In this document: positions 7,285 to 61,545 of the stretch, one piece after another
Numbering within the stretch: position 1 is the stretch's first letter
How the letters are laid out: every line of letters starts with the position of its first letter
IMG/VR virus record: IMGVR_UViG_3300043467_001216
Origin: a virus
Taxonomy: Duplodnaviria; Heunggongvirae; Uroviricota; Caudoviricetes
DNA length: 64,000 bases
Reading direction: 5' to 3' (one strand)
Position numbers and translations under genes: made by a program
The notes under the pieces: generated by a model
Seen by the model: the letters and a program-made list of their open reading frames with translations, nothing else
Databases searched by the model: none
What the model was told of the DNA's origin: nothing

Positions 7285-8208
7285 ATGCAAACAAATTATT
7301 ACGACGTACTTGGAGTTAAAGAAAACTCAGACCAAGACACGATTAAAAAAGCTTATAGGTCTTTGGCGAAAAAACATCATCCAGATAAAGGTGGTAATGA
7401 TGAGATGTTTAAGAAAGTTTCTGAAGCTTATGATGTTTTAGGGGATGAAAATAAACGAAGACAATATGATACCCAAAAACAAAACCCATTTCATAATGCA
7501 AGAGGTGGTGGGAATGGATTTAATCCATTTGATGAAATGTTCAATATGTTTAATGGTGGTCGACAAAGACAGAGAACTGTTCCTGATAAAATAATTGATA
7601 TTTTAATAACACCTGTAGAATCCTATAATGCGGTTGATAAACATATTAAATATCAAAGAAAACATATGTGTGTTGATTGTCACGGTAATGGGGGTGATAG
7701 ACAACACTGTGGACATTGTAATGGTACTGGTGTGATAACACAACGAATTGGTACGGGAATGTTTATTCAAATGGTTCAATCGCATTGTAATGTTTGTAAT
7801 GGTGTTGGTTATACATATACTAGAGTTTGTGGGACTTGTAAAGGTTCTTGTACTACTGAAAAAATGGACAGTATTAGTGTTAAATTACCTCACGGAATTG
7901 ATGACGGTCAATTTTTGAAAGTTCAAGGGAGAGGTGATTTTAGTAATGGTATTTATGGTAATTTAATTATTAGAATTAAAGTTAAAAATGATAGTAATTT
8001 TGAGAAATTTGGGGATGATTTAATTTATAATAAATTTTTGAACTTAGATGAATTAAAAGTGGATTCGTTTGTAGTCCCACATCCTTCAGGTGACTTATCA
8101 ATAAAAATACCACCAGTATTTGATTCATCAATACCTTTAAGAGTTAAATCTAAAGGTTATAATAATGGTGAGTTGTATATTAAATTATATGTAAAGTTCA
8201 CACGTTAA
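7285..8208 (+). CDS. dnaJ: type I DnaJ/Hsp40 co-chaperone
   Basis: J domain with HPD (YYDVLGV...KKHHPDKGG); G/F-rich linker; four CxxCxGxG zinc-finger repeats ([32 protein letters not shown]); C-terminal domain. Confidence 0.9.
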
Positions 8209-8433
8209 TTAACGTGTGAACAATGATGCGATATCTTTAACAATTTGAACTAAACCGTAAAATCCAAGAAATAATATTGCAACACCAATGGCAACTAATT
8301 TAAGGTTACCTGATGATAAAGCTTTATTTTTGCAACTTTTACATTCCTTTTTATTTTTATTAGGTTCTGTGTAGTTAGGGACTTCAACTAAGGTTGAAAA
8401 AATTTCTTCTTGATTTGTTTCTTGATTTTCCAT
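8209..8433 (-). CDS. small tail-anchored membrane protein
   Basis: 74 aa with C-terminal hydrophobic helix LKLVAIGVAILFLGFYGLV. Confidence 0.5.
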   Translation of the reverse strand: MENQETNQEEIFSTLVEVPNYTEPNKNKKECKSCKNKALSSGNLKLVAIGVAILFLGFYGLVQIVKDIASLFTR

Positions 8434-8504
8434 ATATTTTAGTATTATTAAATAATAATAATTAGTATTTTTCTAATTTTAAATAATTAAACAAAAAATA
8501 AAAT

Positions 8505-9344
8505 ATGTTATCTTATATTGGTGGTAAAAGTAAAATTGGTAAATGGATAGTTCCATTCATACCTAAAGACATTGAAACGTATGTCGAACCATTTAGTGGT
8601 ATGTATTGGGTTTTCTTCAATATGGATTTGAAAGAGTATCCTAACCTAAAGAAAGTTGTTTACAACGACTTTAACCCACTAAATTATAACCTATTCAAGT
8701 GTGTTCAGAACCCCCAAGAGTTGTTGAAGGCAATCAATTCAATTGAGTGTCAACAATTCGGAGTTGAGGTAACACCACCACACTTAAAAGAACAATTTAT
8801 CAGCTTTCAGGCTGAAATTTTTAAGGAAGGTTTCAGCGTAGAACCTGGTGATTATGTGGTCGCGGCTAAGTATGTGTATGTGTTGACTCAGGTGTTCTCA
8901 GGTTCAAAACCTGAAACCTCATCATATATTGACTTGAAAGGTAAATACAAATCAAAGTATCTAACATTTAGAGATAAGTTAAGTAAACCTGATTGGGTAG
9001 AACATTTCTTAAAGATAACTCACGTTGAGAATATGGACTTTGCTGATGTAATAACTAAGTATGATGGTGAGAAAAGTTATTTCTATACTGACCCGCCATA
9101 TTGGAAGACTGAGAATTACTATTCAAATCACGACTTCGATAGAAACGACCACGAGAGATTGGCAAATACACTAAAAGGTATTCAAGGTAAGTTCTCATTA
9201 TCTTATTATGATTTTGAAATATTATCTGAGTGGTTTCCAAAAAATGAGTATATTTGGGAGAGTAAACTATTCGCCAAAGCGGCAGCAGCTAAAAAAGGTA
9301 AAACACAAACTATGGGTGAAGAGTTATTAATTATGAATTATTAA
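8505..9344 (+). CDS. DNA N6-adenine methyltransferase, D12 (Dam-like) class
   Basis: YIGGKSKI, EPFSGMYWVFF (SAM-binding) and YTDPPYW (DPPY catalytic motif). Confidence 0.85.
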   Translation: MLSYIGGKSKIGKWIVPFIPKDIETYVEPFSGMYWVFFNMDLKEYPNLKKVVYNDFNPLNYNLFKCVQNPQELLKAINSIECQQFGVEVTPPHLKEQFISFQAEIFKEGFSVEPGDYVVAAKYVYVLTQVFSGSKPETSSYIDLKGKYKSKYLTFRDKLSKPDWVEHFLKITHVENMDFADVITKYDGEKSYFYTDPPYWKTENYYSNHDFDRNDHERLANTLKGIQGKFSLSYYDFEILSEWFPKNEYIWESKLFAKAAAAKKGKTQTMGEELLIMNY

Positions 9345-11085: not shown

Positions 11086-11112
11086 AAAACCCCCAAGACC
11101 TGGGGGTTTTTT
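11086..11112 (+). terminator. rho-independent terminator
   Basis: CCCCCA-agacc-TGGGGG followed by a T-run. Confidence 0.85.
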
Positions 11113-18870: not shown

Positions 18871-20751
18871 ATGGCTAATCAAAAAGTCCCCCAATTACCC
18901 GTATTAACCGCTATCACAGGTAGTGATTTATTTTACGTTGTTGACGTTAGTGATATAACGGATGACCCAACGGGTAGTTCCAAACAGATTACAAGAGACG
19001 AAATATTAACAAGTGTTAATCAAATAGATTTTAACTTAACTGCCGTAACAACACACGAGGAAGGTCGAGTTTCTTGGAATGATGATATTAAATCATTAGA
19101 AATTGATACTGAAAACCCTGAAGTTCAAGTCCAAGTAGGACACGAAATGGTTATTAGAGTTAACAATCAAACAGGTTCTATTTTAACTAAAGGGACTGTT
19201 GTGTATATCAACGGTGCTCAAGGTCAAAGACCTACAGTGACTAAGGCGGATTATAGTGCTGATACGTCATCAGCGTCAGTTATTGGTTTAGTTGCAGCTG
19301 ACATAAATAATGGTGATAATGGTTATGTTATCACATCAGGAATTCTTGAAGGTGTCAACACAATTGATTATACGGCAGGAACATCATTATATTTGTTCAC
19401 AGGTGGGACGTATTCCTCAAATAAACCGCAAGCCCCTGACCACGATGTTCGTATTGGTAAAGTGGTTGTGTCAAACGCAACTACGGGTTCTATATATGTT
19501 AATGTTCAGAATGGTTATGAACTAGATGAATTGCACGACGTTAGAATCACAAGTGTGTCTGAGAATGATGTCTTGGTTCGTAGTACCTATAACGGTTCAC
19601 CTGTTTGGGTGAATACTAAAACAATTTCAGGTCTTACATATGTGCAGGCGACAACAATATCTGCAACGACATATCAAAATTTACCACCTGACTTATGGAC
19701 TCAGAATGGTAGTAGTATATACTATAATGGTGGGAATGTTGGTATTGGTCAAAGTAACCCAACTAGAAAGTTTGAGGTTGTAGATGGTGCTAGTTTAGCT
19801 TATTTTAACTTAACTGGTACAAGTGGACCAGCAGCTGTTATTAGTACTACAGACCTTACAAAATTAACTAGATTTATTGCAACTGATGGGACTAATTCAA
19901 TAAATATTGGTATTAGAACATCTGGTGAAACTGATAATCCTACTGTTGGTGGACAAGGTGATGCATTTATTTATGTTAATGCAAGTGCTAAGGGTTTAAG
20001 TATTGTTAATGCACCTTTTACAGGTATTAATAATGATTATATTAGATTATATGCGGGTTTACTTGCGACTCAAGGTATATCACATTTACACGTGCAAGGT
20101 TCTGGAACTACTAAAGGGTTTATCGGAATAAATAATGAAAATCCTATTGCACGACTACATGTAAGTGGTGATACACTCATAGATGGTGTTTTATCAGCGA
20201 CAACAATATCAGCAACAACCGCATCAATATCAGGTTCAGGTCAAAATGTTTTAACTGTTACAGGTTCAGGTAATAGTACCTCATCACCAATATTTAAAGT
20301 TATTGGTTCACAAGGAGAATTGTTTAGTGTTACTGATTCATTAACAGGTTTATTACAAAGTGTTAATAATATCTCAGGTTTACCAATTTGGCAAGTATAT
20401 TCTGATAATACCATATTAATGGGAACGTATTTAGCACCTTCGTTAAACACGACCGTTAGGGTATCATTAACTGCTGGAACTAATACTGTCTATTCAATAC
20501 CGACAAGTGCCTATACAGGTGGTTTCTTTGATTATACTGTGATTAGTAGTGGAGGTGCGGGAGCTAGAGCGGGAACTGTTATGTCTATATGGAGTGGTAC
20601 TACGGCTGAATACACTGATGTATCAACTAATGATATTGGTAATACATCGGGGATATCATTTTCAGTTGCGGTTTCCGGTGGTAATTCAGTGTTAAGTTGT
20701 TCCGCAACTACTACGGGTTGGATATTAAAAACTATAGTTAGAAGTATATGA
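18871..20751 (+). CDS. tail fibre protein
   Basis: 626 aa, S/T/G/N-rich beta-type sequence; N-terminus MANQKVPQLP.LTAITGSDLFYVVD typical of phage fibres; shares ISATTYQNLP motif with 22515 ORF. Confidence 0.7.
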   Translation: MANQKVPQLPVLTAITGSDLFYVVDVSDITDDPTGSSKQITRDEILTSVNQIDFNLTAVTTHEEGRVSWNDDIKSLEIDTENPEVQVQVGHEMVIRVNNQTGSILTKGTVVYINGAQGQRPTVTKADYSADTSSASVIGLVAADINNGDNGYVITSGILEGVNTIDYTAGTSLYLFTGGTYSSNKPQAPDHDVRIGKVVVSNATTGSIYVNVQNGYELDELHDVRITSVSENDVLVRSTYNGSPVWVNTKTISGLTYVQATTISATTYQNLPPDLWTQNGSSIYYNGGNVGIGQSNPTRKFEVVDGASLAYFNLTGTSGPAAVISTTDLTKLTRFIATDGTNSINIGIRTSGETDNPTVGGQGDAFIYVNASAKGLSIVNAPFTGINNDYIRLYAGLLATQGISHLHVQGSGTTKGFIGINNENPIARLHVSGDTLIDGVLSATTISATTASISGSGQNVLTVTGSGNSTSSPIFKVIGSQGELFSVTDSLTGLLQSVNNISGLPIWQVYSDNTILMGTYLAPSLNTTVRVSLTAGTNTVYSIPTSAYTGGFFDYTVISSGGAGARAGTVMSIWSGTTAEYTDVSTNDIGNTSGISFSVAVSGGNSVLSCSATTTGWILKTIVRSI

Positions 20752-23618: not shown

Positions 23619-24539
23619 ATGATAGATACTTTTAACATAAATGACGGTAGTTTAAACAACCAAGTGTTCAACTATAATGGGAATACAGGGTGGCAAGTAT
23701 GGAACAAACCACCTAAATGTAATTTAGTGAATTTCTTTTTAGTTGGTGGTGGTGCCGGTGGTCAAGGTGGTATTATTAATTCTGCCGCCAATCGTAATGG
23801 AGGTGCGGGAGGTGGTTCTGCCGCCTTTTCATATATAACCGTTCCAGCATTTGCAATTCCCGATACTTTATATATATTAGTGGCAAGTGGTGGAACAGGA
23901 GGTGCGTCAAGTGGTGGTGCCGGTGGTCAAGGAAGTCTTAGTTATGTCTGTTCTGTACCTGATACGTCAACTGTTAATAATATATTAATGAGGAGTGGTT
24001 CGGCGAATGCGGGTGTTACAACAACAACAACTGCGGGTGCGGCAATTACTGTTGCGGATATTTTATTAGCTGAGGCTGCGTTTATTTCAGGATATGCGGG
24101 TCAAACAGGTGGTGCGGGTGGTGTAACAAGTACTCCTGCGGTTGATATAACACCAACAGGTATTCCATTCACATCAGGTGCGGGTGGTGCTGGATGTGGT
24201 TCGACAGGAACGTTAGGTGTTGCGGGGGATATCGTAGGTATTTTAGATTTCCCAATTATCTCAGGTGGTACAAATACATCATCGGCAGGTGCGACTGCGG
24301 GTTCGGGAAATAACGGATTTTCGACAAGAGAAAGTTTTACTAGCCAAAATTATAAATATCCTATGTTCTTTACAGGAGGTGCCGGTGGTGGTGCAGCCTC
24401 TAACGCAACAGGTGTTGGAGGACGTGGTGGTGATGGAGCCTATGGTTGTGGTGGAGGAGGTGGTGGTGCCGGTGGAAACACAACTGCGGGACGTGGTGGT
24501 GATGGTGGTCACGGATTAGTTATAATTACAGTTACATAA
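23619..24539 (+). CDS. glycine-rich domain protein (paralog 1)
   Basis: MIDTFNI...WQVWNKP..C..V.FFLVGGGAGGQGG...GGAGGGSA...L.ILV..GGTGG...GGDGGHGLVIIT; Gly_rich-type pattern. Confidence 0.75.
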   Translation: MIDTFNINDGSLNNQVFNYNGNTGWQVWNKPPKCNLVNFFLVGGGAGGQGGIINSAANRNGGAGGGSAAFSYITVPAFAIPDTLYILVASGGTGGASSGGAGGQGSLSYVCSVPDTSTVNNILMRSGSANAGVTTTTTAGAAITVADILLAEAAFISGYAGQTGGAGGVTSTPAVDITPTGIPFTSGAGGAGCGSTGTLGVAGDIVGILDFPIISGGTNTSSAGATAGSGNNGFSTRESFTSQNYKYPMFFTGGAGGGAASNATGVGGRGGDGAYGCGGGGGGAGGNTTAGRGGDGGHGLVIITVT

Positions 24540-24542
24540 AAT

Positions 24543-25487
24543 ATGATAGATACTTTTCACATATCAGATGGTAGTGTCAATAGACAAGTGTTCTATGCGA
24601 CAGGACCGAATACCTTCCAAACTTGGAATAAACCCCAAAACTGTAAATTCGTTTACTTCGTATTAATCGGAGGTGGCGGAGGTGGCGGAGGTGGTCAAAG
24701 TGGTGGAACAGGAACCTCTCGTAGAGGTGGTGGTTCAGGTGGTTCAGGTGGATTAACTAAAGGTATGTTTCCCTCTTCAATTATTCCTGATAGATTATAT
24801 ATTCAAGTTGGTTCAGGTGGAACTGCTGGTGTTGGTGGTACGACTAACAGTGATGGTGGTACTGCTGGTATATCATATGTTATGGTTACACCTGACACTA
24901 CTGAAACTGCACAAAATATACTACTACAAAGTAGTTTGGCGGCTGCGGGTGGTGGTCGTTCAGGTTTAAATGGTGGTGCTCTTGGTGCTGCTGCAACGGC
25001 TTGGGTATTCACTAATAATATTTTTTATAAATTTGGGTTGGTTGATACTTATGCGGGTCAAGCGGGTGTTTTAGGTCAAACAACGGCATTACCAACTAAC
25101 TTAACAATTAGTGGTATTGTAAGTGGTGGTGGTCCAGGTGCGGGTCAAAACGGTGCAACTGCACAAGAGGGTGGTTCAGTTGTTGGTGGTGGGTCAATAC
25201 CTACAATGACAGGAGGACCAGCGGGTGGTTCAGCGACATCAACAACACCCGGAGGTAATGGTAGTGGTGGATATATGACATTTACCCCTAACACACTTGG
25301 ATACACAACAGAACCATTGATATTTATCGGTGGTGCTGGTGGTGGTTCATCAGATGGTGGACCCGGAGGTTCAGGAGCTGGCGGAGCCTATGGTTGTGGT
25401 GGTGGAGGAGGTGGAGCCGGAATAACTAACCAAGGTGGTAATGGTGGTAAAGGTGGTGACGGAATAGTCATAATAACGTGGTGGTAA
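24543..25487 (+). CDS. glycine-rich domain protein (paralog 2)
   Basis: same N- and C-terminal frame as paralog 1; 3-nt spacer. Confidence 0.75.
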   Translation: MIDTFHISDGSVNRQVFYATGPNTFQTWNKPQNCKFVYFVLIGGGGGGGGGQSGGTGTSRRGGGSGGSGGLTKGMFPSSIIPDRLYIQVGSGGTAGVGGTTNSDGGTAGISYVMVTPDTTETAQNILLQSSLAAAGGGRSGLNGGALGAAATAWVFTNNIFYKFGLVDTYAGQAGVLGQTTALPTNLTISGIVSGGGPGAGQNGATAQEGGSVVGGGSIPTMTGGPAGGSATSTTPGGNGSGGYMTFTPNTLGYTTEPLIFIGGAGGGSSDGGPGGSGAGGAYGCGGGGGGAGITNQGGNGGKGGDGIVIITWW

Positions 25488-25496
25488 TATTATAAA

Positions 25497-26459
25497 ATGA
25501 TAGATACATTCAATTTACCTGGAAAGGAAAGGTATACACAAATTTTTACAGTAAACTCAAGTGGGTCAACAGGTTGGGAAACTTGGAATAAACCATCAAA
25601 CATTTCTTACATCCATATTTTATGTATTGGTGGTGGAGGAGGTGGAGGAGGGGCTCGTGGTAGTTCGCTGAATACCGCAACAGGAGGAGGTGGTGGAGGT
25701 TCTGCAGCTCACTCAATTGGATTATTTCCTGCGGTTTTATTACCTGATACATTATTCGTTCAGGTGGGTAAAGGAGGTGCTAGTGGTGTTGGTGGTGCTA
25801 AGGGTGTTAACGGAACTGATGGTGGTTCGGGAGAACATTCTTATGTGTCAGTTATACCATCAACGGGAACTACTGCGGTATTGATGAAAAACGGTACTGC
25901 GGGTGCTGATGGTGGTAATGGTGGACAAAGTTCAGTTCAAGGTGCTGCGGGAACTGCGGGAACAACTTGGACTTATAACACAACATTTATATTTCCCCAA
26001 TTAGGACAGATATCACCATTTGCTGGTCAAAATGGTGGTATCGGTGGTTCAACAGGTGGTGGTAATGGTGGTTCGATAACTATTACAGGTCCAACAACAG
26101 GTGGTGGTGGTGGAGGTGGAACAACAAGTGGTGGCTCATCAGGTGGTGGTGGTTCAATTACGGGTGTTGGGATAATACCAACTATTGTTGGTGGAACTGC
26201 GAATTCATTAACGGCTAGTAATGGTGCGGGTGGTTATGGTATGAATTTATTAACAACTGAATCAAGTTCACCAAGTCCTTTATTTTTTACGGGAGCTGCG
26301 GGTGGTGGTGGTGCTGGTCCAAATGCTGATAGAGAAGGTGGTGACGGAGGTCACGCTGCTTACGGTTCAGGAGGTGGAGGTGGAGGTGCATCTTATAATG
26401 GTAAAGGTGGTGACGGAGGTAAAGGTGGTGATGGTGTTGTAATTATTACTTGTTGGTAG
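25497..26459 (+). CDS. glycine-rich domain protein (paralog 3)
   Basis: same frame as paralogs 1 and 2; 9-nt spacer. Confidence 0.75.
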   Translation: MIDTFNLPGKERYTQIFTVNSSGSTGWETWNKPSNISYIHILCIGGGGGGGGARGSSLNTATGGGGGGSAAHSIGLFPAVLLPDTLFVQVGKGGASGVGGAKGVNGTDGGSGEHSYVSVIPSTGTTAVLMKNGTAGADGGNGGQSSVQGAAGTAGTTWTYNTTFIFPQLGQISPFAGQNGGIGGSTGGGNGGSITITGPTTGGGGGGGTTSGGSSGGGGSITGVGIIPTIVGGTANSLTASNGAGGYGMNLLTTESSSPSPLFFTGAAGGGGAGPNADREGGDGGHAAYGSGGGGGGASYNGKGGDGGKGGDGVVIITCW

Positions 26460-26493: not shown

Positions 26494-27357
26494 ATGGAAA
26501 ATTATATAGGAAAAATTATAAATGGTGATTGTGTTGATGTTATGTCAGAAATGCCAATAAACTCAATTGACTTAATTGTAACGTCACCCCCATACGGAGT
26601 TGGGATTGCCTATGATGTTCACGATGATGATATGTATATTGATGAATATTTGAAATTTACAACCAAATGGTTAACACAAGCATATCAGATATTAAAAGAT
26701 GATGGAAGGATTGCGATAAACATTCCTTATGAAATTAATAGACAGGACAAAGGTGGAAGAATTTTCTTTTGTTCTGAGGTTTATCAGGTAATGAAAAGAA
26801 TTGGATTTAAATTCTTTGGTATTGTTGACCTTGAAGAAGATTCTCCTCATCGTAGTAAAACTACGGCTTGGGGTAGTTGGATGTCACCTTCAAGTCCTTA
26901 CATATATAATCCAAAAGAATGTGTTATATTAGCCTACAAACACAAACATATTAAAACAGTTAAAGGTGAACCACAATGGAAAGGAATGCCAACTGAGATT
27001 GAACAAGAAGATGGGACAGTTAAGAAAAAAGTTGTCTATGATGAAATGGATAAGAAAGAGTTTATGGAATTGGTGTTTGGTCAGTGGAAATATTTTGCTG
27101 ATACTAAATCGTTAACAAAAGCGACTTTCTCTATGGATATCCCAACTAAGGCGATTAAAATATTGTCATATAAGAATGACGTAATATTGGACCCATTTGC
27201 GGGTTCAGGAACAAGTTTGGTTGCTGCTGAAACATTGGATAGACGATGGGTGGGTATTGAATTATCACCAAATTATGCTGAGATAGCTTGGAAACGAGTC
27301 CAAGGATTTGTGGACCAAAAAAAACAACAAGAATTAGAATTCGAAAAGGGGGAATAA
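26494..27357 (+). CDS. DNA methyltransferase, beta-class N4-cytosine/N6-adenine
   Basis: DLIVTSPPYG (motif IV) is N-terminal; DPFAGSGTSLVAAE (motif I) is C-terminal; SPPY favours m4C but is not decisive. Confidence 0.85.
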   Translation: MENYIGKIINGDCVDVMSEMPINSIDLIVTSPPYGVGIAYDVHDDDMYIDEYLKFTTKWLTQAYQILKDDGRIAINIPYEINRQDKGGRIFFCSEVYQVMKRIGFKFFGIVDLEEDSPHRSKTTAWGSWMSPSSPYIYNPKECVILAYKHKHIKTVKGEPQWKGMPTEIEQEDGTVKKKVVYDEMDKKEFMELVFGQWKYFADTKSLTKATFSMDIPTKAIKILSYKNDVILDPFAGSGTSLVAAETLDRRWVGIELSPNYAEIAWKRVQGFVDQKKQQELEFEKGE

Positions 27358-42507: not shown

Positions 42508-44172
42508 ATGAGAAATATATTAGCCGAACAAATTAGTAAGATGCAATCTATGATGGGTATTCAAGATGACTTACTACTTGAAGCTTCGAAATTAAAAATA
42601 TTAACAGACAAAGAAGGTTTAGACCAAGACCAAGCGGAATTACTTGATGAGTTATGCGGTGGGTTATCGGTTTGGATGTTAAGTAAGATAAAAGATTTCC
42701 AAAGAGAAACGGCTAGAATTAGAAATATGGAGGATTTATCCGATAAAGCAATGATTAATTTAATAAATGTCAATGGGTTAACTAGTAGGATAAGACCAAA
42801 CATTATTAATGTTATGGATTGGGTTCGAGTTGGGTTGAATAGTAATGTTAAACCATTTAAAAACTTAACATTACAAGAGTTAGATAAGAAAGCTAAGGAA
42901 TGGCACGAATCATTGAGTATTGGTCAAGGTGATATTAATTATGTTGAGAAAAATGACATAATTAAAGACTTCCGTGATGAAAATGGTAATGGGTTTTATT
43001 GGGCTGACTTGAATACTAAGGATTCGAAGGAAGAGTCTGAAAGAATGGGTCACTGTGGTCGTTCAAATTATGGGTATATATATTCATTAAGAGAAACAAA
43101 ACCTATTAATGATAAATTCAAAATCAATAGAAGTCATTTAACAACCGCAATTGGACATGATGGTATTATGTATCAATTAAAAGGTCCTAAGAACTCTAAA
43201 CCTAAAGAAGAATACCATAACTACATTTTACCATTGTTTTATGTGTTAGGTGGTGAAGGTGAAGAAGATGATTATTTAGTTAAAGGATTTGGAACCGAAT
43301 ACGCGTCACAACAGGATTTCAAATTAAGTGACTTACCTGATGATGTTATCAGAGAGTTATATCGAAATAGACCTGAATTGTTTGAAGGTAGAGTGATGAT
43401 GAGAAAATTGGTTGATATGGGTATAATTGATGCTCCTAATGTTAACTATAATATTACACTTAATATAGACCCTGATGATGTTACAAGATATGTTGATGGT
43501 GATTACGTTTATAGAAGATATAAGAAAAAGGTTACAACACCTGCGGGTCAAGAATATGAAAGAACTGTTGAAGTTACAATGTTTGAATTAATATTAGCGG
43601 GAGAAACTTGGGATTTATATTATAATGACTATACGGATTGGAGAGATTGTCTTAACTATTACGTAGATGATAAGAATGAACAAGAAATTAGAGAAATTTT
43701 AAGAAAAGTTGCTGAACGTGATGATGATGAATTCATTGCTGAAGATTTTGACGAAATGGATATTGAGGATATTATTGAAGAATATGATGATAATCATAGT
43801 ATACAAAGTGCGTTAGGTAATGCTCAAAGTAACGCTGAAGCGGATGATTACTCTAATTATTTATATGGATTATTAAAAGATGCGTTACAAGAATATGGGA
43901 CAATTGAGAAAATGAATGATGAGGGGGTAATCTTACATATAGATACACAACGATATTTTGATGATGTTCATTCTGATTATCTTGATGAATATTTTGAAAG
44001 ATGTGATGATGATATTGAATGTACCTTTAAGGAACTTGCGTATGAAGGTGAAATTGAAAAACCAAAGTGGGACCCTGATGATAGATGGTATCCAAGCGTT
44101 GATAAAAATAACTATAATGAAATGTTATCCGATTATCTCTACGATGTAAGAAGTGAATATAATGTAAAATAA
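42508..44172 (+). CDS. acidic protein with PcfJ-like motif
   Basis: 554-aa ORF; ERMGHCGRSNYGYIYSLRE...SHLTTAI; D/E-rich C-terminal half. Confidence 0.65.
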   Translation: MRNILAEQISKMQSMMGIQDDLLLEASKLKILTDKEGLDQDQAELLDELCGGLSVWMLSKIKDFQRETARIRNMEDLSDKAMINLINVNGLTSRIRPNIINVMDWVRVGLNSNVKPFKNLTLQELDKKAKEWHESLSIGQGDINYVEKNDIIKDFRDENGNGFYWADLNTKDSKEESERMGHCGRSNYGYIYSLRETKPINDKFKINRSHLTTAIGHDGIMYQLKGPKNSKPKEEYHNYILPLFYVLGGEGEEDDYLVKGFGTEYASQQDFKLSDLPDDVIRELYRNRPELFEGRVMMRKLVDMGIIDAPNVNYNITLNIDPDDVTRYVDGDYVYRRYKKKVTTPAGQEYERTVEVTMFELILAGETWDLYYNDYTDWRDCLNYYVDDKNEQEIREILRKVAERDDDEFIAEDFDEMDIEDIIEEYDDNHSIQSALGNAQSNAEADDYSNYLYGLLKDALQEYGTIEKMNDEGVILHIDTQRYFDDVHSDYLDEYFERCDDDIECTFKELAYEGEIEKPKWDPDDRWYPSVDKNNYNEMLSDYLYDVRSEYNVK

Positions 44173-50063: not shown

Positions 50064-50320
50064 GAATTGATTATTTAACGGAGAATTTTGAAGGTGAAGA
50101 TTTTTTGGTTGCGGATGGTTTTGACGATGCCATTATTGGTGTTGACGAAAATAGTATGAGAATTATATATTCTGTGACTAAATCCATTGAAATTTTAATG
50201 AAAGAAAATATGACATATGAAGAAGCTAATGAGTATTTTTACTTTAATGTTAGTGGTTCTTATGTTGGTGATAAGACACCGATTTGGTGTTACGATAATT
50301 GTTTAACAAACCAAAACTGA
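50060..50320 (+). CDS. hypothetical protein
   Basis: ATGA overlap. Confidence 0.5.
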   Translation: MRIDYLTENFEGEDFLVADGFDDAIIGVDENSMRIIYSVTKSIEILMKENMTYEEANEYFYFNVSGSYVGDKTPIWCYDNCLTNQN

Positions 50321-50324
50321 TATT

Positions 50325-50474
50325 ATGTTAGAACTAGTAAAAATAAGTCACAACGCTGATAAAGCAACTGCGATTAGACTAATATCGCAAACATTGGAAA
50401 ATTATGGGTTAGTGGTTAAAGTCCACGAGATTAATGATGAAGAAACGGTATATTCAATTGATGTTTTAAAATAA
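50325..50474 (+). CDS. small hypothetical protein (49 aa)
   Basis: below cutoff; fills the gap. Confidence 0.3.
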   Translation: MLELVKISHNADKATAIRLISQTLENYGLVVKVHEINDEETVYSIDVLK

Positions 50475-50480
50475 AAAAGT

Positions 50481-52676: not shown

Positions 52677-53063
52677 ATGAGTAGAGTTAATTTGATTGCA
52701 TCAACAGGGTTAATCTTCAATGAAGATAAGTCAATGGTATTAGGTGTGTCACGTAAAGACGATAAAACTAAATTTGGTTTACCTGGTGGTAAGGTTGATG
52801 AAGGTGAAACAATGTATGAAGCATTGGTTAGAGAGTTGAAAGAAGAAACAGGATTGGATGTTATTAAGGCGGTCCCGATATATTTCAGAGAAGATGGTAT
52901 ATACGTGACCGTGGTTTATTTGATTAGTGAATATTCAGGTGATATATATACAGAAGAGGCCGGTGTCGTTAAATGGGTTACATTTGAAGAATTGAAACAC
53001 GGGGCGTTCTCAGAATACAATACAATGTTGGAGGAACATTTGAAATTTATAAATTATATATGA
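52677..53063 (+). CDS. Nudix hydrolase
   Basis: Nudix box GLPGGKVDEGETMYEALVRELKEETGL. Confidence 0.85.
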   Translation: MSRVNLIASTGLIFNEDKSMVLGVSRKDDKTKFGLPGGKVDEGETMYEALVRELKEETGLDVIKAVPIYFREDGIYVTVVYLISEYSGDIYTEEAGVVKWVTFEELKHGAFSEYNTMLEEHLKFINYI

Positions 53064-53818
53064 ATATGAAGAAATTAATTTATTTTACATTAGGTAATAA
53101 TCCAAATTACTTAAAATTGGCTGATATGTGTATTAACAGTTTATATCATAATGGTTATGATGGTGATTTTTTATTTATAACTGACTTAAAGAATGAGATT
53201 TTAAACCAAATCAATTTTAAAACTCAACCTTATTTTTTAGAATTAAAAGAATCTTCATTGTTAGAATCGTCGGCGAATAAACTTAAAGTTTATTCATTTA
53301 ATAAAATAAATGAATATGATAAAATTATATTTTCAGATTTAGATATTTTATGGGTGTCGAACCCTGAAATAATTTTTAATCTTATTGATGAGGATAAATT
53401 TTATATGAGTAATGAAGAAGGGTTAATGACTGATGAATTATGGGGTGGTTTGTTGTTAACTGATACTGAAAAAATTGAAATTGACCAATTGAAAATTTTT
53501 GGGTTAAATTGTGGTCTATTTGCGTTTAATAACAAAATGATACCGTATTTAGAGCAGGTTGATTTATTTTTGAATAATAATTTAGAGTTACAAAATGTGT
53601 GTTTAGAACAACCATTTTTGAATGTTTATGTTTATCGTAATAATTTATATAATAATAAATTGAATGGTTTGGTTAGTCATAAAGGTTATCATTTTGTTAA
53701 TTCACCTTTAGATTTAATCAAATATGATGGTGTTGTTTTACATTTTGCAGGTGGTCCTGGTAATTATGATTTTAAATATGAAAAAATGTTGATTTATTTT
53801 AACGAATATTTTAAATAA
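53060..53818 (+). CDS. glycosyltransferase (GT8-like, DxD)
   Basis: IIFSDLDILW DxD motif; overall nucleotide-diphospho-sugar transferase layout. Confidence 0.6.
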   Translation: MNMKKLIYFTLGNNPNYLKLADMCINSLYHNGYDGDFLFITDLKNEILNQINFKTQPYFLELKESSLLESSANKLKVYSFNKINEYDKIIFSDLDILWVSNPEIIFNLIDEDKFYMSNEEGLMTDELWGGLLLTDTEKIEIDQLKIFGLNCGLFAFNNKMIPYLEQVDLFLNNNLELQNVCLEQPFLNVYVYRNNLYNNKLNGLVSHKGYHFVNSPLDLIKYDGVVLHFAGGPGNYDFKYEKMLIYFNEYFK

Positions 53819-53830
53819 ATAACGTGTTAT

Positions 53831-54031
53831 ATGTTGGTTGAGGGGGAATATAATTATGCTAAACTAATTACTATTGAAGGTGATGTTGTCGCGGTTGCGG
53901 TTATGGAAGTAGGTTCAGAGAATGAAGCTGGTGTTGTTAATTGGGCTTTAGATAATGATTTCACCTTAGTTAAGATTGACGAACAAGAGTTTTTGGATTT
54001 TGAAAGTGATTATGATATTGAACTTGAATAA
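53831..54031 (+). CDS. hypothetical protein
   Basis: 66-aa ORF. Confidence 0.5.
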   Translation: MLVEGEYNYAKLITIEGDVVAVAVMEVGSENEAGVVNWALDNDFTLVKIDEQEFLDFESDYDIELE

Positions 54032-54069
54032 AATTTTCACTCAGGTGTTGTGCATATCCAAAAGATAGT

Positions 54070-54077
54070 TATATTTG
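54070..54077 (+). promoter_or_regulatory. Bacteroidetes-type -7 box driving the sRNA
   Basis: TATATTTG with no ORF downstream. Confidence 0.5.
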
Positions 54078-54083
54078 TAGTGT

Positions 54084-54306
54084 GTGAGTGTCACACAGGA
54101 TGTCAGAACTCCTAACTTACAATCTGACCATTAAGTATCAGGTGAGATGATACGGGTTGATTACCCCAACTTAGTAAGTGAAACCATCAGGATGTCAGAA
54201 CTCCTAGTTCACAATCTGACCACTAAGAATCGGGTGAGGCGGTTCGGGTTAAACACCTCAATCCAAAGGATGAAATTTAAACCCCCAAGTACATTGGGGG
54301 TTTTTT
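54084..54306 (+). ncRNA. candidate phage sRNA: 5' hairpin, two tandem 92-nt pseudoknot-like units, intrinsic terminator
   Basis: no ORF on either strand; units start at 54096 and 54188 (46 of the first 52 nt identical); AGGA/TCCT interleaved with GTCAGA/TCTGAC; terminator CCCCCAA-gtaca-TTGGGGG followed by T6; 5' end approximate. Confidence 0.6.
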
Positions 54307-54316
54307 GTTTTATCTA

Positions 54317-54331
54317 ATATTTATTGATATG
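54317..54331 (+). promoter_or_regulatory. ATATTTATTGATATG motif containing the start codon
   Basis: identical to 15892 and 36986. Confidence 0.5.
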
Positions 54332-54805
54332 AAAATAATATTAACTGAGAATAAGTTAGATAAAATAATTGAAAAATATGGTATAGTTAAAACCATTAGA
54401 AATATTGGTGGGTATAAAAATTTTGATAAAATATACCCTGATTATTTTTATTCAGGTGATACATCACAATGGGATAGAGAACGTGTTATTAATTTTTTAA
54501 ATGAATGTGTTGAGGTTAATAACAGAATAGAAAATGAATCAAGTATTTATCTTCACGACTATTGGGAAGATATCTTATATCAAAGTTGGAGTGATTATAA
54601 TGAAGATGCTGGTAGAGAGTTTCAGTATGAATCTAGAATAATGTCTATTAGTACTGATTTTGCACATACTGAAGTGTGGCAATATGATGAGGAAGGTGAA
54701 ATGTTTGATGAAGCTTACGATTATAATGATATACCTTTGAATAGATTGGAAACTAGGTTTTTAAGTAAAATATTTGGGCAACTTTGGGGGGTATTTAAAT
54801 TATGA
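54329..54805 (+). CDS. hypothetical acidic protein
   Basis: N-terminus MKIILTENKLDKIIEKY; start inside the conserved 15-mer. Confidence 0.6.
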   Translation: MKIILTENKLDKIIEKYGIVKTIRNIGGYKNFDKIYPDYFYSGDTSQWDRERVINFLNECVEVNNRIENESSIYLHDYWEDILYQSWSDYNEDAGREFQYESRIMSISTDFAHTEVWQYDEEGEMFDEAYDYNDIPLNRLETRFLSKIFGQLWGVFKL

Positions 54806-55278
54806 AGTTATTAAAATTATTATCGACATTAATTACTGAGAGTAGGTTATTTGACAGATTTGTTGTCAACGGTCTTGTTGTTGATGTAACCAGCACTCGT
54901 GAGTCTGATGTTGCGGTAATGGATAATACAACATTCGGTAGAGTTCCCAAAGAAGAAATATTAGAATCAATGAGAGATATCATTGAAGTTATTGTAACAC
55001 AAGGATTGGTGGTATTAGATACTTGTGAAAGAAGATGTGGTTTATTAGTAAGTGATTATTCAATGGGGTTCGATTACCAACTTTGGGTAACATTGAAGAC
55101 TAATAAATTAGAATTGAAAATTAACACATCAATCAAACATCCAAAACAATTATTTAACGATAAACACAAAACAAGACGTGTTATCGTAACTAGAGACGGT
55201 GAGACCGTTATCAGAGAATCATTAGAACATTATCGTTCAGTTAAAATCGGAAAAAAAATCGTTTATTTTATAGACTAA
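54802..55278 (+). CDS. hypothetical protein
   Basis: ATGA overlap. Confidence 0.55.
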   Translation: MKLLKLLSTLITESRLFDRFVVNGLVVDVTSTRESDVAVMDNTTFGRVPKEEILESMRDIIEVIVTQGLVVLDTCERRCGLLVSDYSMGFDYQLWVTLKTNKLELKINTSIKHPKQLFNDKHKTRRVIVTRDGETVIRESLEHYRSVKIGKKIVYFID

Positions 55279-55337
55279 ATCGTAAATTATCTATAACTTT
55301 AGTCATAAAAGAAATTTTAGATTAAATACTAACGATT

Positions 55338-55535
55338 ATGAATAAGCATAGAATTAACATTATCAACAAACAGAGTAGTAGGTTGATACATAAGAACCAC
55401 TTAGATAGTTGTTTAGAACATTTATCAATCGCTCACTTTCACTTATCAAAACATCTTAAAGGTAAGAATGATATGGGGTTATTGACTAACATATTGAACT
55501 CATCTTTTGAGATAAAAAAACATTTAAAACGATGA
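55338..55535 (+). CDS. hypothetical protein
   Basis: 65-aa ORF. Confidence 0.45.
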   Translation: MNKHRINIINKQSSRLIHKNHLDSCLEHLSIAHFHLSKHLKGKNDMGLLTNILNSSFEIKKHLKR

Positions 55536-55958
55536 ATGGATAAAAAGATTGGATTTACGTGTTCCTGTTTTGATTTATTTCATGCGGGACATATTATGAT
55601 GCTTAAAGAAGCTAAAAGTGTTTGTGATTACTTAATAGTTGGTTTACAGAGTGACCCCACGTTAGACAGACCTGAGAAGAATAAACCTGTTCAAAGTATA
55701 GTTGAAAGATTTATTCAATTGGATGCTTGTAAGTATGTTGATGAGATTGTGGTTTATGCGACAGAAAAAGATTTAATGGACGTATTGTTATCGTATCCAA
55801 TCAATGTTAGGATTGTTGGGGATGAATACGCTGAAGTTAATTTTACAGGTAAAAACTTACAACATATTGAAATTTATTATAATACAAGACGACATTCATT
55901 TTCAACAACAGAATTAAGAAAACGAGTAATTGAATTATCAAATGGACAAAGTAAGTGA
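55536..55958 (+). CDS. cytidylyl/adenylyltransferase (RfaE domain II / TagD-like)
   Basis: CSCFDLFHAGHIMMLKEAK (HxGH motif), LIVGLQSD, VDEIVVY and FSTTELRKRV match the glycerol-3-P cytidylyltransferase / heptose-1-P adenylyltransferase family. Confidence 0.8.
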   Translation: MDKKIGFTCSCFDLFHAGHIMMLKEAKSVCDYLIVGLQSDPTLDRPEKNKPVQSIVERFIQLDACKYVDEIVVYATEKDLMDVLLSYPINVRIVGDEYAEVNFTGKNLQHIEIYYNTRRHSFSTTELRKRVIELSNGQSK

Positions 55959-56478
55959 TATATTGGTTAAACAATTTTCCTTGTCGGATGAGTTTAAAGA
56001 TTACATTCAAGATAATATTAATAATTCAGGTTGTTCTAACATTGAATTTTTAGAATTTAATAATGGTTTGTTTGGTGTTTCATTACACGATGGTATAATA
56101 CTAAATGATACGTTGTTAAAATATCCATTATCGTTATGTATTTTCATAATACTACACGAATTAACACACCAATTACAATTTAATAAATATGGTGTTGACA
56201 AGATGTATCTTTATTTAAATGATGTGAGTGATGATGAGGTTAGTGAATTCATTTTAAAACAAGAAATCGTTGCTGATAGATTGGCATCACTGAAAATACG
56301 TCAATTACAAAAGAAAGGTTTAATTAGTAAAGATTTTACACCAATACAGATTCATAAAAAGGTCGACCCAAAACTCTTTAAACAAAAGATTGTAAATTAT
56401 AGAAACCTGATGAGAGAACAAAACGTTAGAACACCTGACGATGTTAGTTGTTTTTTTAAATCATTAATATTATATTAG
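55942..56478 (+). CDS. HExxH zinc-metallopeptidase-like protein
   Basis: FIILHELTHQLQF; start moved from TTG 55930 to ATG 55942. Confidence 0.5.
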   Translation: MDKVSDILVKQFSLSDEFKDYIQDNINNSGCSNIEFLEFNNGLFGVSLHDGIILNDTLLKYPLSLCIFIILHELTHQLQFNKYGVDKMYLYLNDVSDDEVSEFILKQEIVADRLASLKIRQLQKKGLISKDFTPIQIHKKVDPKLFKQKIVNYRNLMREQNVRTPDDVSCFFKSLILY

Positions 56479-56482
56479 TAAA

Positions 56483-57196
56483 ATGAAAAAGAAAATTGTT
56501 GTATTCACAGGTGCTGGTGTTTCAAGAGAAAGTGGTGTCTTGACATTTAGAGATAGTGTGGATGGGTTATGGGAGAATCATAGTATTGATGATGTTTGTA
56601 CACCTTCAGGATGGAAAAAAGACCGTGAGAAGGTTTTGAATTTTTATAACGATAGACGAAGACAATTACCTACGGTTGAACCTAACTCAGCCCACACAGG
56701 TTTGGTTAAGTTAGAGGACAAATATGACGTAACAATCGTTACCCAAAATGTTGATGACCTACACGAAAGAGCGGGTTCATCTAAGATATTACATTTACAC
56801 GGTGAGTTGACTAAAGCCAGAGGTGCGATGTATAGTCATAAGACAAGTCCATTGGATAATATCGTGGTGATTGGTTATAATGATATTAACATTGGTGATA
56901 AGTGTGAGATAACAGGTTCACAGTTGAGACCCCACATTGTTTGGTTTGAAGAGATGCCATTCAACGTCGAGGAAAGTTATGACGCAATAACCGAATCTGA
57001 TGTGTTAATCATTATCGGAACTAGTTTGATGATTGGTTACACATTAAATCTATTATCAAGTGTTAGTGATGAGTGTAAGATTTATTATATTGACCCCCAA
57101 CCAAGTAGGTATTTGGACCATTTAGGTAAAGATATTACTTACATTGAGAAACCGGCAACGGAAGGTGTTGAATTAATTTTAAATGAATTGTTATGA
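56483..57196 (+). CDS. cobB: Sir2-family NAD-dependent protein deacylase (CobB type)
   Basis: VVFTGAGVSRESGVLTFRD, QNVDDLHERAG, HLHGE, RPHIVWFEE and IIIGTS are collinear with CobB; most zinc-module cysteines are absent. Confidence 0.9.
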   Translation: MKKKIVVFTGAGVSRESGVLTFRDSVDGLWENHSIDDVCTPSGWKKDREKVLNFYNDRRRQLPTVEPNSAHTGLVKLEDKYDVTIVTQNVDDLHERAGSSKILHLHGELTKARGAMYSHKTSPLDNIVVIGYNDINIGDKCEITGSQLRPHIVWFEEMPFNVEESYDAITESDVLIIIGTSLMIGYTLNLLSSVSDECKIYYIDPQPSRYLDHLGKDITYIEKPATEGVELILNELL

Positions 57197-57600
57197 AAAG
57201 AAATATACCTGATATGAAGAACCAATTGTTGTTCTATATGGATAAGTGGGGTGAAAAAGGAAACAAGTCTGACCGAACACCTGAAAAGTATGAGGAAACT
57301 ATGATTAATCTTGAGAAGAAGATTGAGAAGGATATGATTGAGGTTTTATCTAAAATGGGGATTAATGCCAGTGTTAAGACTGATAGATATTCATTACCAC
57401 ATCAGTTTCAAATTAAAACTACACAATACGGAGAATCATATTTGAATGGGGCATTCGAATCTGTTAAATTATATCGTGCGGTTTTAAAAGAAATGACTAC
57501 TTTGAATTTATATAAAATTAGATTTTATATTTTAGCCGAGGTCGAAGATTGTTTACCTATAGGTAAGGTTAATTATTACTTCAATTATTATATTCACTAA
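57193..57600 (+). CDS. hypothetical protein
   Basis: ATGA overlap with Sir2 gene. Confidence 0.55.
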   Translation: MKRNIPDMKNQLLFYMDKWGEKGNKSDRTPEKYEETMINLEKKIEKDMIEVLSKMGINASVKTDRYSLPHQFQIKTTQYGESYLNGAFESVKLYRAVLKEMTTLNLYKIRFYILAEVEDCLPIGKVNYYFNYYIH

Positions 57601-61461: not shown

Positions 61462-61531
61462 AGCGGAGTAGTGTAATTGGTAACATATTGGATTGTCTCC
61501 TTTGATGTGGGTTCGAGTCCCATCGCCGCAA
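61462..61531 (+). tRNA. tRNA-like RNA 7 (70 nt; poor anticodon stem)
   Basis: D arm GTGT-AATTGGTA-ACAT; T arm GTGGG-TTCGAGT-CCCAT; acceptor has two mismatches; the anticodon region TTGGA-TTGTCTC-CTTTG pairs poorly. Confidence 0.45.
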
Positions 61532-61545
61532 CTAAAATTTAAATT

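Follow-up and report, generated by a model that had tools for sequence, protein, structure and literature searches.

The 64,000-nucleotide stretch of DNA analysed here (the window) comes from an uncultured aquatic phage, large at about 187 kb or more, with about 30% GC. Between 52.7 and 57.6 kb it carries genes for a Nudix hydrolase, a nucleotidyltransferase (NTase) and a sirtuin (Sir2), and the question this raises is whether they act together on NAD, as a preliminary description proposed. The open reading frames were found where that description had placed them, all are genuine, and its domain calls were borne out (Nudix, a weak GT8-like match, HIGH-motif NTase, HExxH, CobB-type Sir2 and a coupled ORF), while its reading of them found support in part. 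The genes do not form an NAD-salvage operon; they are accessory genes that have been shuffled independently. The reading favoured here, with some reserve, is that of an accessory region in which the genes are tightly packed and have been reshuffled by recombination; they are independent modules and make up no single pathway. The features are:

50309..50480, no strand: empty syntenic sites, from a collinear tblastn map against the related locus L173
52677..53063, + strand: minimal Nudix hydrolase, 128 aa, MutT-like by profile (PF00293, 8.6e-18)
53060..53818, + strand: GT8-like glycosyltransferase candidate (PF01501, E 0.0018)
54279..54303, + strand: terminator-like hairpin, AAACCCCC...GGGGGTTT then a T run, past the Nudix/GT block and ahead of the NTase-Sir2 run
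55338..55535, + strand: 65-aa ORF, in this lineage a conserved partner on the 5' side of the NTase
55536..55958, + strand: cytidylyltransferase-family (TagD/ECT/CCT/RfaE-II type) NTase, 140 aa (PF01467, 4.3e-15)
55942..56478, + strand: gluzincin-like HExxH protein, 178 aa, uncurated family (HELTH at residues 72-76)
56483..57196, + strand: zinc-less CobB-type (class III) sirtuin, 237 aa (PF02146, 1.9e-38)
57193..57600, + strand: 135-aa lineage-restricted ORF, w57193, with an ATGA overlap with Sir2

The gene overlaps in the run are genuine, but since 9 of the 22 same-strand junctions between 49.9 and 59.8 kb overlap (and 16 of the 22 have a gap of 15 nt or less), they are nothing unusual for this region.

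In a salvage route the NTase would be an NMN or NaMN adenylyltransferase. A profile search of the PDB gave matches to ECT (1.4e-25), TagD (1.2e-13), HldC (3e-7) and CCT (1e-6), against E values of 0.2-0.8 for NadR, NMNAT and PPAT; over the comparisons as a whole NMNAT and NadR stood at 0.03-0.8. Among NCBIfam models RfaE-II (6e-19) and TagD (3e-16) likewise stood far from NMNAT (0.004-0.007). The assignment as an RfaE/TagD-like enzyme therefore holds, and NMNAT was rejected, as profile comparison places the protein with the TagD/ECT/CCT/RfaE cytidylyltransferases. It scores 58 bits against TIGR00125 (cut-off 27.7), matches PHROG 7878 at 6.5e-37 and is annotated by JGI as glycerol-3-phosphate cytidylyltransferase; 'cytidylyltransferase' is also the annotation of an auxiliary gene in cyanophage papers. 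With TagD, ECT, CCT and RfaE domain II (HldC) it shares the HxGH, (R/K)YVDE and RTxGISTT-like motifs, present here as FHAGH (15-19), KYVDE (66-70) and RRHSFSTT (118-125). TagD is of the same size (129-140 aa) and the match spans the full length. The scores nevertheless lie below the equivalog cut-offs of TagD (59.8 against 165.4) and RfaE-II (68.3 against 181.5), so the NTase is an ortholog of neither. The structural model was poor (pLDDT 62, TM about 0.38) and fold comparison therefore adds little. From its family, the enzyme would be expected to make an NDP-activated alcohol or sugar phosphate.

The NTase has at least 8000 homologs, the best 120 listed being 77-95% identical. An alignment of the 27 closest gave a mean column identity of 86%, which is unusually high, and showed no variation in the family motifs HxGH, KYVDE and R-x-x-S-F-S-T-T. 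The gene's usual setting, seen in more than 40 of 80 loci, is UvsW-UvsY-(T4 gp55-like gene)-NTase-gp47-gp46. The 65-aa ORF, whose stop codon abuts the NTase ATG, is found directly 5' of the NTase in L005, L086, L166 and L173 with 58-88% identity. The NTase is a very conserved aquatic-phage auxiliary gene, unrelated to NAD synthesis.

The Nudix hydrolase had also been put forward as a possible member of the unit. It has a canonical Nudix box (residues 38-60) and occupies the same position in L005, L086, L173 and L174 (91-98% identity), but it is MutT-like at best: MutT is its top NCBIfam match (6.6e-15, under the cut-off), the NudE/ADPRase models reaching only 1e-5. It is separated from the run by the hairpin at 54279, one of six ACCCCC-N-GGGGGT copies in the window (chance expectation 0). 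The adjoining GT8-like call is weak (18.4 bits against a PF01501 gathering cut-off of 24.3). No homolog of this gene was found in 164 related loci, the 96-98% identical L005 included, and its site is occupied in L173 and L174 by a reverse-strand 149-aa gene; it is a strain-specific insertion.

Nor do the relatives support treating the run as a module conserved for a joint function: the neighbourhood is mosaic. The clade shows four gene arrangements of the region, the slot directly 5' of Sir2 holds three unrelated genes across relatives, and, starting from either gene, just 1 IMG/VR locus in 80 has the other within 6 kb; the many loci behind such counts are not independent in phylogenetic terms. 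NTase and Sir2 are 0.5-4.4 kb apart in all but one of the clade's four types of arrangement, so a loose functional link is possible. The Nudix, GT8-like, HExxH and w57193 genes would be variable cargo.

Sir2 itself is CobB-type, as had been proposed. E. coli CobB is its top solved-structure match (1.6e-46 over residues 2-182, in the 45% identity range), and CobB-type NCBIfam models match at 4.6e-55, although every NCBIfam equivalog cut-off is missed (186 bits against 318). With E. coli/Salmonella CobB and other class III sirtuins (SIRT5, Sir2Af1) the protein shares the Rossmann NAD-binding motifs, QNxD, the catalytic His, the Y-x-x-R acyl-carboxylate pair and RPHxVWF. The motifs are GAGVS (10-14), TFR (21-23), FYNDRRR (54-60, holding the class III Y55 and R58), TQNVDD (87-92) and HLHGE (104-108, with the catalytic H106). 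Conservation across 85 phage homologs is 90% or more for FYNxRR and for every NAD and catalytic motif. The preliminary description was also right that these motifs are intact while most zinc-module cysteines are gone: C141 is the one cysteine left in the zinc region, against four in E. coli CobB. The substrate-staple loop is GTSLMIGYT rather than the canonical sirtuin GTSLxVxPA (GTSGHVYPA in CobB), FEE replaces FGE, and the C-terminal 55 residues diverge from CobB. The loss of zinc ligation and the altered staple loop are both lineage traits, not decay. All but one of 86 phage sequences, among them the Sir2 of the window, have a zinc-region cysteine count of 0, 1 or 2. Homologs occur in more than 1000 GenBank phage records. 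Zinc-less phage CobB-type sirtuins are a kind already known, published for KVP40-like phages; the zinc-less finger domain was earlier described for phiSt2/KVP40 (PMC5107563). KVP40-like Vibrio phages and T5-like phages have Sir2/CobB proteins of the same family (PHROG 2162, 1.5e-45; 36-46% identity), but those genomes encode NAD salvage genes and the window none; its clade is also uncultured, aquatic and of low GC, with the IGYT staple variant and a neighbour of its own, w57193.

Most likely, judged from these motifs, Sir2 is an NAD-dependent lysine deacylase. It would use NAD+ to take acyl groups off lysine residues in proteins of the host or the phage; from the conserved Y55/R58 pair, these may be acidic acyls. 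Its products would be nicotinamide and O-acyl-ADP-ribose. The lost zinc site, the non-canonical staple loop and FEE for FGE do imply that the substrate may not be an acyl-lysine peptide, and no biochemical data for phage CobB-type sirtuins were found in the literature searched.

The proposed NAD-centred neighbourhood stands at the level of the lineage, where an NAD/ADP-ribose link is seen, but the genes are not those that had been named. Namat (8e-166 to SPbetaL1 Namat 9W5X) lies a few kb upstream in L171, L173 and L174, and L173 additionally has an Adps-like gene (Prs homology, 2e-14). The latter sits where the window has 50309-50348 (40 nt), and Endonuclease VII, Namat and a 105-aa ORF where it has 50472-50480 (9 nt). 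In a sister clade Sir2 is embedded among Nampt, NADAR, Macro, HAD-SAK, Prs and Thg1. Overall 34 of 84 Sir2 loci have Prs, Nampt, Macro or NADAR, compared with none of 80 NTase loci. The window encodes no Nampt/Namat, Prs/Adps, NMNAT, Macro or NADAR. Across the wider lineage the region would thus be an NAD/ADP-ribose island, with the window's phage lacking those genes at syntenic sites; in relatives the Adps/Namat or Nampt/Prs/Macro/NADAR genes could recycle sirtuin products. The likeness to the phage NAD reconstitution pathways NARP1 (Adps + Namat) and NARP2 (Nampt + NMNAT-Nudix) lies in the relatives with Namat in the same collinear region and in the sister clade with Nampt, Prs and Macro around Sir2. 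The window has neither Adps nor Namat, its NTase is no NMNAT and its Nudix is a free-standing MutT-like protein.

Three other explanations were weighed against that of independent accessory genes. A salvage or counter-defence pathway for NAD or ADP-ribose is distinctly improbable. It would join to Sir2 a Nudix that acts as a pyrophosphatase on ADP-ribose or NAD and an HxGH NTase that works as an NMN adenylyltransferase, amounting to KVP40 NatV (NMNAT-Nudix) in split form. The order Nudix, NTase, Sir2 does recur in L173 and L174, 3-6 kb downstream of Namat, an NMNAT-Nudix fusion is used by NARP2, and NMNATs too fall under PF01467. The TagD-like family is not confined to one phosphate monoester, some of its enzymes acting on others (e.g. 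the archaeal RibL FMN adenylyltransferase). Against this, NMNAT/NadR/NadM models trail TagD/ECT/RfaE by 10 to 20 orders of magnitude, the cytidylyltransferase signatures KYVDE and RxxSFSTT are invariant, the usual home of the NTase is the T4-type replication/recombination block, none of 80 NTase loci has Nampt, Prs, Macro or NADAR, the MutT-like Nudix lies behind the hairpin, and the window has no Nampt/Namat from which NMN could come. Remoter still is a weapon, with Sir2 as an NADase or ADP-ribosyltransferase (defence-SIR2- or SirTM-like) for superinfection exclusion or host shut-off. NAD hydrolysis is within reach of Sir2 domains and the anti-defence-type genes Tad6 and NARP1 are nearby in relatives, but no PADLOC defence model, SIR2 included, matches, no fused sensor, HerA, TIR, pAgo or Macro partner is present in the window, and the closest sequences are housekeeping CobB and Sir2Af1/SIRT5. 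Sir2 as a defence NADase was rejected on the PADLOC result and the top match to CobB.

A role in RNA repair is unlikely, though less so than either of these. [quoted passage not shown] 2022, PMC9503650). Like theirs, the window's Sir2 is phage-specific and has no Macro partner, and its relatives have HAD-SAK and Nudix nearby: in L171-L173 a distance of 3-8 kb separates Sir2 from HAD_SAK_2 (the 'Swiss army knife' HAD of RNA repair), and the sister-clade cassette includes HAD_SAK_2 and Thg1. The non-canonical staple loop and zinc-less small domain suit a non-peptide substrate, and the Y/R pair could bind phosphate. However, none of the partners in those neighbourhoods (2H, cREC, PIN, T4 RNA ligase, kinase, MazG, HAD-SAK) is encoded in the window, nor any RNA ligase, PNK or Thg1, and Sir2 has lost neither the class III acyl-recognition pair (Y-x-x-R) nor any of the residues for deacylase catalysis.

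The two remaining genes flank Sir2. The HExxH protein belongs to a family of 166 clusters at 50% identity with weak Pfam matches to SprT/YgjP, and in 38 homologs H72, E73, H76, Q79, K82, G84, E108 and A111 are invariant. For w57193, the AF2 model (pLDDT 69) gave no significant match in a fold search, and its 180 homologs are all hypothetical, none with a Pfam domain; it adjoins Sir2 or lies within about 1 kb of it in all clade relatives (L005-L010, L166-L173).

The ORFs named in the preliminary description of this phage sequence (GC about 30%) were all found where it had placed them, and its domain calls held: Nudix (PF00293, 8.6e-18), nucleotidyltransferase (PF01467, 4.3e-15) and Sir2 (PF02146, 1.9e-38). 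What it had observed was thus confirmed; its reading of the region as an NAD-centred neighbourhood stood in part only. Searched by megablast against the phages of GenBank, the region gave no match, the sequence having no close relative there, and in four huge-phage loci (460-640 kb) compared as context Sir2 was the sole gene in common. The features concerned are:

50309-50348, 40-nt site, and 50472-50480, 9-nt site, where a relative carries extra genes
52677-53063, Nudix protein
53060-53818, GT8-like protein
54279-54303, terminator-like hairpin, + strand
55338-55535, w55338, ORF of 65 aa
55536-55958, nucleotidyltransferase (NTase)
55942-56478, HExxH protein
56483-57196, Sir2 protein, 237 aa
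57193-57600, w57193, coupled ORF of 135 aa

The Sir2 protein, a single domain of 237 aa, scored 132.7 bits against PF02146 (cut-off 24) and matched PHROG 2162 'Sir2' at 1.5e-45. Its best solved-structure match was E. coli CobB (1.6e-46). CobB-type NCBIfam models gave values of up to 4.6e-55, yet under their cut-offs, and the protein fell short of the CobB equivalogs (NF001755, 186.5 bits vs 318; NF040867, 153.6 vs 320). Its motifs are GAGVS (residues 10-14), TFR (21-23), TQNVDD (87-92) and the catalytic H106; across the family the NAD-binding Rossmann motifs and the catalytic His are at least 90% conserved. In class III sirtuins a Y-x-x-R pair recognises acidic acyl groups. This pair (Y55/R58, in FYNDRRR, 54-60) aligns with FYNARRR of CobB and is kept across 85 homologs.

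The claim that the NAD-binding and catalytic motifs are intact and most zinc-module cysteines gone was borne out, as only C141 remains vs four in E. coli CobB (fragment). With this one Cys, the protein does not have the Cys-ligated zinc of the class III small domain. Phage Sir2 sequences, the window's included, have none (22), one (39) or two (24) of these residues in 85 of 86 cases, so that zinc-Cys loss is a family trait; it has already been described in silico for phiSt2/KVP40 Sir2 (PMC5107563). The peptide beta-staple loops also differ, with FEE for FGE, seen in the window's clade too, and GTSLMIGYT for GTSLxVxP. Both this clade and its sister carry GTSLxI(G/T)YT, a further derived feature; GTSLxVxPA is the form found in canonical sirtuins and in phage homologs at a greater distance, the latter keeping FGE and VxPA. 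Homologs turned up in 1022 records of GenBank phages, T5-like, KVP40-like and huge ones among them, and number at least 8000 as metagenomic cluster representatives.

The NTase belongs by motifs and profile to the cytidylyltransferase family (TagD/CCT/ECT/RfaE-II). FHAGH (15-19), KYVDE (66-70) and RRHSFSTT (118-125) show no variation among 27 sequences, and the TIGR00125 score was 58 against a cut-off of 27.7. The idea that it might be an NMN/NaMN adenylyltransferase (NadD, NadM, NadR, NatV) did not survive the profile comparison that the preliminary description had suggested, with a clear outcome at the sequence level. The NCBIfam values were 6e-19 for RfaE domain II and 3e-16 for TagD, against 0.0038 for NadR and 0.007 for NadM. 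Searches of all PDB sequences gave ethanolamine-phosphate cytidylyltransferase (ECT) at 1e-22 with the single protein and 1.4e-25 with a 27-sequence profile, followed by TagD (1.2e-13), HldC (3e-7) and CCT (1e-6), with NMNAT/NadR/PPAT at 0.03-0.8. Foldseek placed TagD, HldC, CCT and ECT first and NadM at rank 40, but with a poor AlphaFold model (pLDDT 62) and a TM of about 0.38 this ranking only echoes the sequence result and is not independent evidence. As the NTase lies below the equivalog cut-offs of both TagD (TIGR01518, 59.8 vs 165.4) and RfaE-II (TIGR02199, 68.3 vs 181.5), it is classed from its sequence as a separate cytidylyltransferase subfamily and not as an ortholog of either.

The NTase has at least 8000 homologs, 77-95% identical among the best 120 listed, which JGI names glycerol-3-phosphate cytidylyltransferase. 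An alignment of its 27 nearest homologs, which come from many contigs and share 76-95% identity with the window protein, has a mean column identity of 86%. Among 80 IMG/VR loci examined (L087-L164 among them), more than 40, from T4-type aquatic phages, have the gene in a T4-type block of UvsW, UvsY, a gp55-like gene, NTase, gp47 (Metallophos) and gp46 (SMC_N); the likeness to T4 gp55 comes from reading of the sequence, with no Pfam hit. A T4 Rnl1-type RNA ligase adjoins the NTase in 15 of the 80. Some of these T4-type loci (families 36 and 63) also hold homologs of the genes at 7285-9344 of the window, a PHROG 14336 protein (8.8e-61) and a DNA methyltransferase (PHROG 56, 4.2e-45). In cyanophage papers the NTase figures among the auxiliary genes, as a cytidylyltransferase to which no role is assigned. 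As an aquatic-phage gene of extreme conservation, this small TagD-like enzyme merits biochemical study.

A Nudix box is present in the 52677-53063 protein, for which the best profile was MutT (6.6e-15, under its cut-off); NudE and bifunctional NMNAT/ADPRase models gave 1e-5 to 4e-3, all under cut-offs. A match to the PADLOC candidate system PDC-S07 (1.3e-14) was taken as generic Nudix similarity. The GT8-like assignment is weak (E 0.0018, under the Pfam cut-off), and among the relatives compared the gene occurs in the window only. No curated Pfam family was found for w57193 or for the HExxH protein, which gave weak SprT/YgjP matches only. In the latter H72, E73, H76 and a downstream Glu ligand, E108, are invariant in 38 diverse homologs; it thus has the gluzincin signature (HExxH plus downstream Glu) and is a putative metallopeptidase. 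Pfam searches of large proteins fused to the HExxH domain were uninformative, and when w57193 was compared by hhalign with every Sir2-neighbour family, the probability stayed under 2% throughout.

The overlaps within the run of NTase, HExxH and Sir2 genes are real. They are no sign of an operon, since tight packing is the local norm: of the 22 junctions between 49.9 and 59.8 kb, 9 overlap and 16 show a gap no larger than 15 nt. The hairpin at 54279-54303 separates this run from the Nudix/GT block and is one of six of its kind. On the + strand, ACCCCC-N(6-10)-GGGGGT hairpins with T-rich tails were found at 11089, 14716, 37683, 44178, 52036 and 54281 (six observed vs none expected in 100 shuffles). 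Two of the six score as intrinsic terminators, and all look like the phage's standard transcription terminators, marking unit boundaries. A promoter scan gave 53 sites vs 52.8 expected, from which no inference was drawn.

Gene orders around Sir2 in the window and related IMG/VR loci
Window and L005: Nudix ... w55338, NTase, HExxH, Sir2, w57193
L173 and L174: Nudix, two other genes, w55338, NTase, 138 aa, 196 aa, Sir2, DUF3307, DUF2452, w57193
L165-L167: w55338, NTase, then seven genes including Endonuclease_NS, then 194 aa, Sir2, w57193, thymidylate synthase, Tad6
L171 and L172: DUF2452, 194 aa, Sir2, DUF3307, w57193; NTase and Nudix absent within 10 kb

Two units are stable across these orders, w55338 with the NTase and Sir2 with w57193, the latter two lying side by side or no more than about 1 kb apart in all of them. 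The slot directly upstream of Sir2 is taken by one of three unrelated proteins. At one stage the NTase-Sir2 pairing seemed unique to one 96% identical contig; longer contigs overturned this, showing the two genes 1-4.4 kb apart in two further types of arrangement. The context of the Sir2 and NTase genes is a shuffled accessory region, in which, as far as the evidence goes, the NTase, Nudix, GT8-like and HExxH genes ride as cargo independent of one another. In L165-L169 the zone 1-3 kb downstream of Sir2 holds a thymidylate synthase split by a NUMOD-type homing endonuclease (e.g. L166:16217-18832) and a homolog of Tad6 (PF25188, Thoeris anti-defence), both absent from the window.

A link with NAD was found among the relatives. 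Gene for gene, L173 runs collinear with the window except for two insertions (L173:992-4501). The first, at the 40-nt site, is a 299-aa Adps-like homolog of Prs (2e-14); the second, at the 9-nt site, comprises genes for Endonuclease VII and for a Nampt-like protein of 494 aa, together with an ORF of 105 aa. The 494-aa protein matched the SPbetaL1 Namat crystal structures 9W5X/9W5W at 8e-166 vs 1e-65 for true NAMPT which, with the Adps-like gene, gives L173 a pair of the NARP1 type (Adps and Namat), one of the phage NAD reconstitution pathways. The same Namat recurs in L171 and L174; the relative in which the Adps-like gene was observed is L173. At the two short intergenic sites of the window, a NARP1-type pair thus shows a clean presence/absence polymorphism. 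In the sister clade (56-67% identity, about 30 loci; L011-L037 and related, e.g. L017:388-12711, L033) Sir2 sits inside a conserved cassette in the order Nampt, NADAR, Macro, HAD_SAK_2, dCMP deaminase, three unknowns, Sir2, DUF3127, an unknown, Prs, Thg1 and a 526-aa protein. Genes for NAD, ADP-ribose and RNA repair are intermingled there, with a phage sirtuin in their midst. Of 84 Sir2 loci, 34 hold a gene for Prs, Nampt, Macro or NADAR, vs none of 80 NTase loci, the loci not being phylogenetically independent.

The NAD link proposed at the outset thus exists at the level of the lineage, and not through the Nudix and NTase genes then named. Tblastn and family HMMs over six frames of the whole 64 kb found neither NARP1 nor any Nampt, Prs, Macro or NADAR gene. 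NARP2 (KVP40-type Nampt with NMNAT/Nudix) is likewise missing from the window, which has no Nampt and an NTase that is not of NMNAT type. Salvage by the Nudix, the HxGH NTase and Sir2 together, the NMNAT/Nudix route proposed at the outset, is very improbable and can be set aside. The best-supported reading, and a fairly likely one, makes the Sir2 protein a lysine deacylase of CobB/SIRT5 type that depends on NAD; homology, retained motifs, the lack of defence-type features and the mosaic context are what has been shown, while the chemistry and substrates are inferred. It would act on host or phage proteins, releasing nicotinamide and O-acyl-ADP-ribose; in the relatives Macro and NARP1 or Nampt/Prs enzymes could recycle these products, and the window lacks such recycling. 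That the protein is instead an NADase weapon is very improbable. No PADLOC defence SIR2 profile (ThsA, DSR, SIR2-HerA, SPARSA and Avs5 types were considered) matched at E <=0.01, so a defence-type NADase is unlikely; and no HerA, TIR, pAgo or SLOG gene was found near this single-domain protein.

For most phage sirtuins, Iyer et al. (2022, PMC9503650) proposed a part in RNA repair, through removal of 2'-phosphates. A role for the Sir2 protein in RNA repair by ADP-ribosyl transfer is conceivable but doubtful: HAD_SAK_2 and Thg1 in the sister-clade cassette speak for it, and the class III pair kept by the window's protein speaks against it. There is also a small chance of a functional coupling between the modified sirtuin clade and genes of NAD reconstitution or RNA repair, and that the zinc-less clade with the GTSLxIGYT staple comprises not protein deacylases but NAD-consuming enzymes of RNA repair or counter-defence, co-evolving with NAD-reconstitution genes. 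Those of close relatives (NARP1 Adps/Namat) and of the sister clade (Nampt/Prs/Macro/NADAR/HAD-SAK/Thg1) might then, equally tentatively, be kept nearby to pay the NAD bill or recycle ADP-ribose products, and the window phage might just possibly be a natural 'NARP-less' variant of the island. The NARP1 preprint makes no mention of sirtuins. Across relatives the Sir2 island has acquired or lost genes for rebuilding NAD, of NARP1 type or of Nampt/Prs type, which provides natural plus/minus variants for testing a functional coupling of phage sirtuins and NAD reconstitution. CobB-type sirtuins occur in more than 1000 sequenced phages, and no tested function was found in the literature searched. 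With its CobB-type phage sirtuin and its phage auxiliary gene for a cytidylyltransferase, the window adds new members to known kinds and by itself reveals no new pathway.

Most large ORFs of the window (e.g. 3162-4898, 18871-20751 and 42508-44172) gave no or only marginal Pfam/PHROG matches. A single tRNA, tRNA-Thr (anticodon TGT), lies at 61462-61532. A GC island at 23619-26459 (45% vs the 30% background) consists of three tandem paralogous glycine-rich ORFs of 306, 314 and 320 aa (42-43% pairwise identity), and is followed at 26494-27357 by an ORF with a DLIVTSPPY methyltransferase motif.
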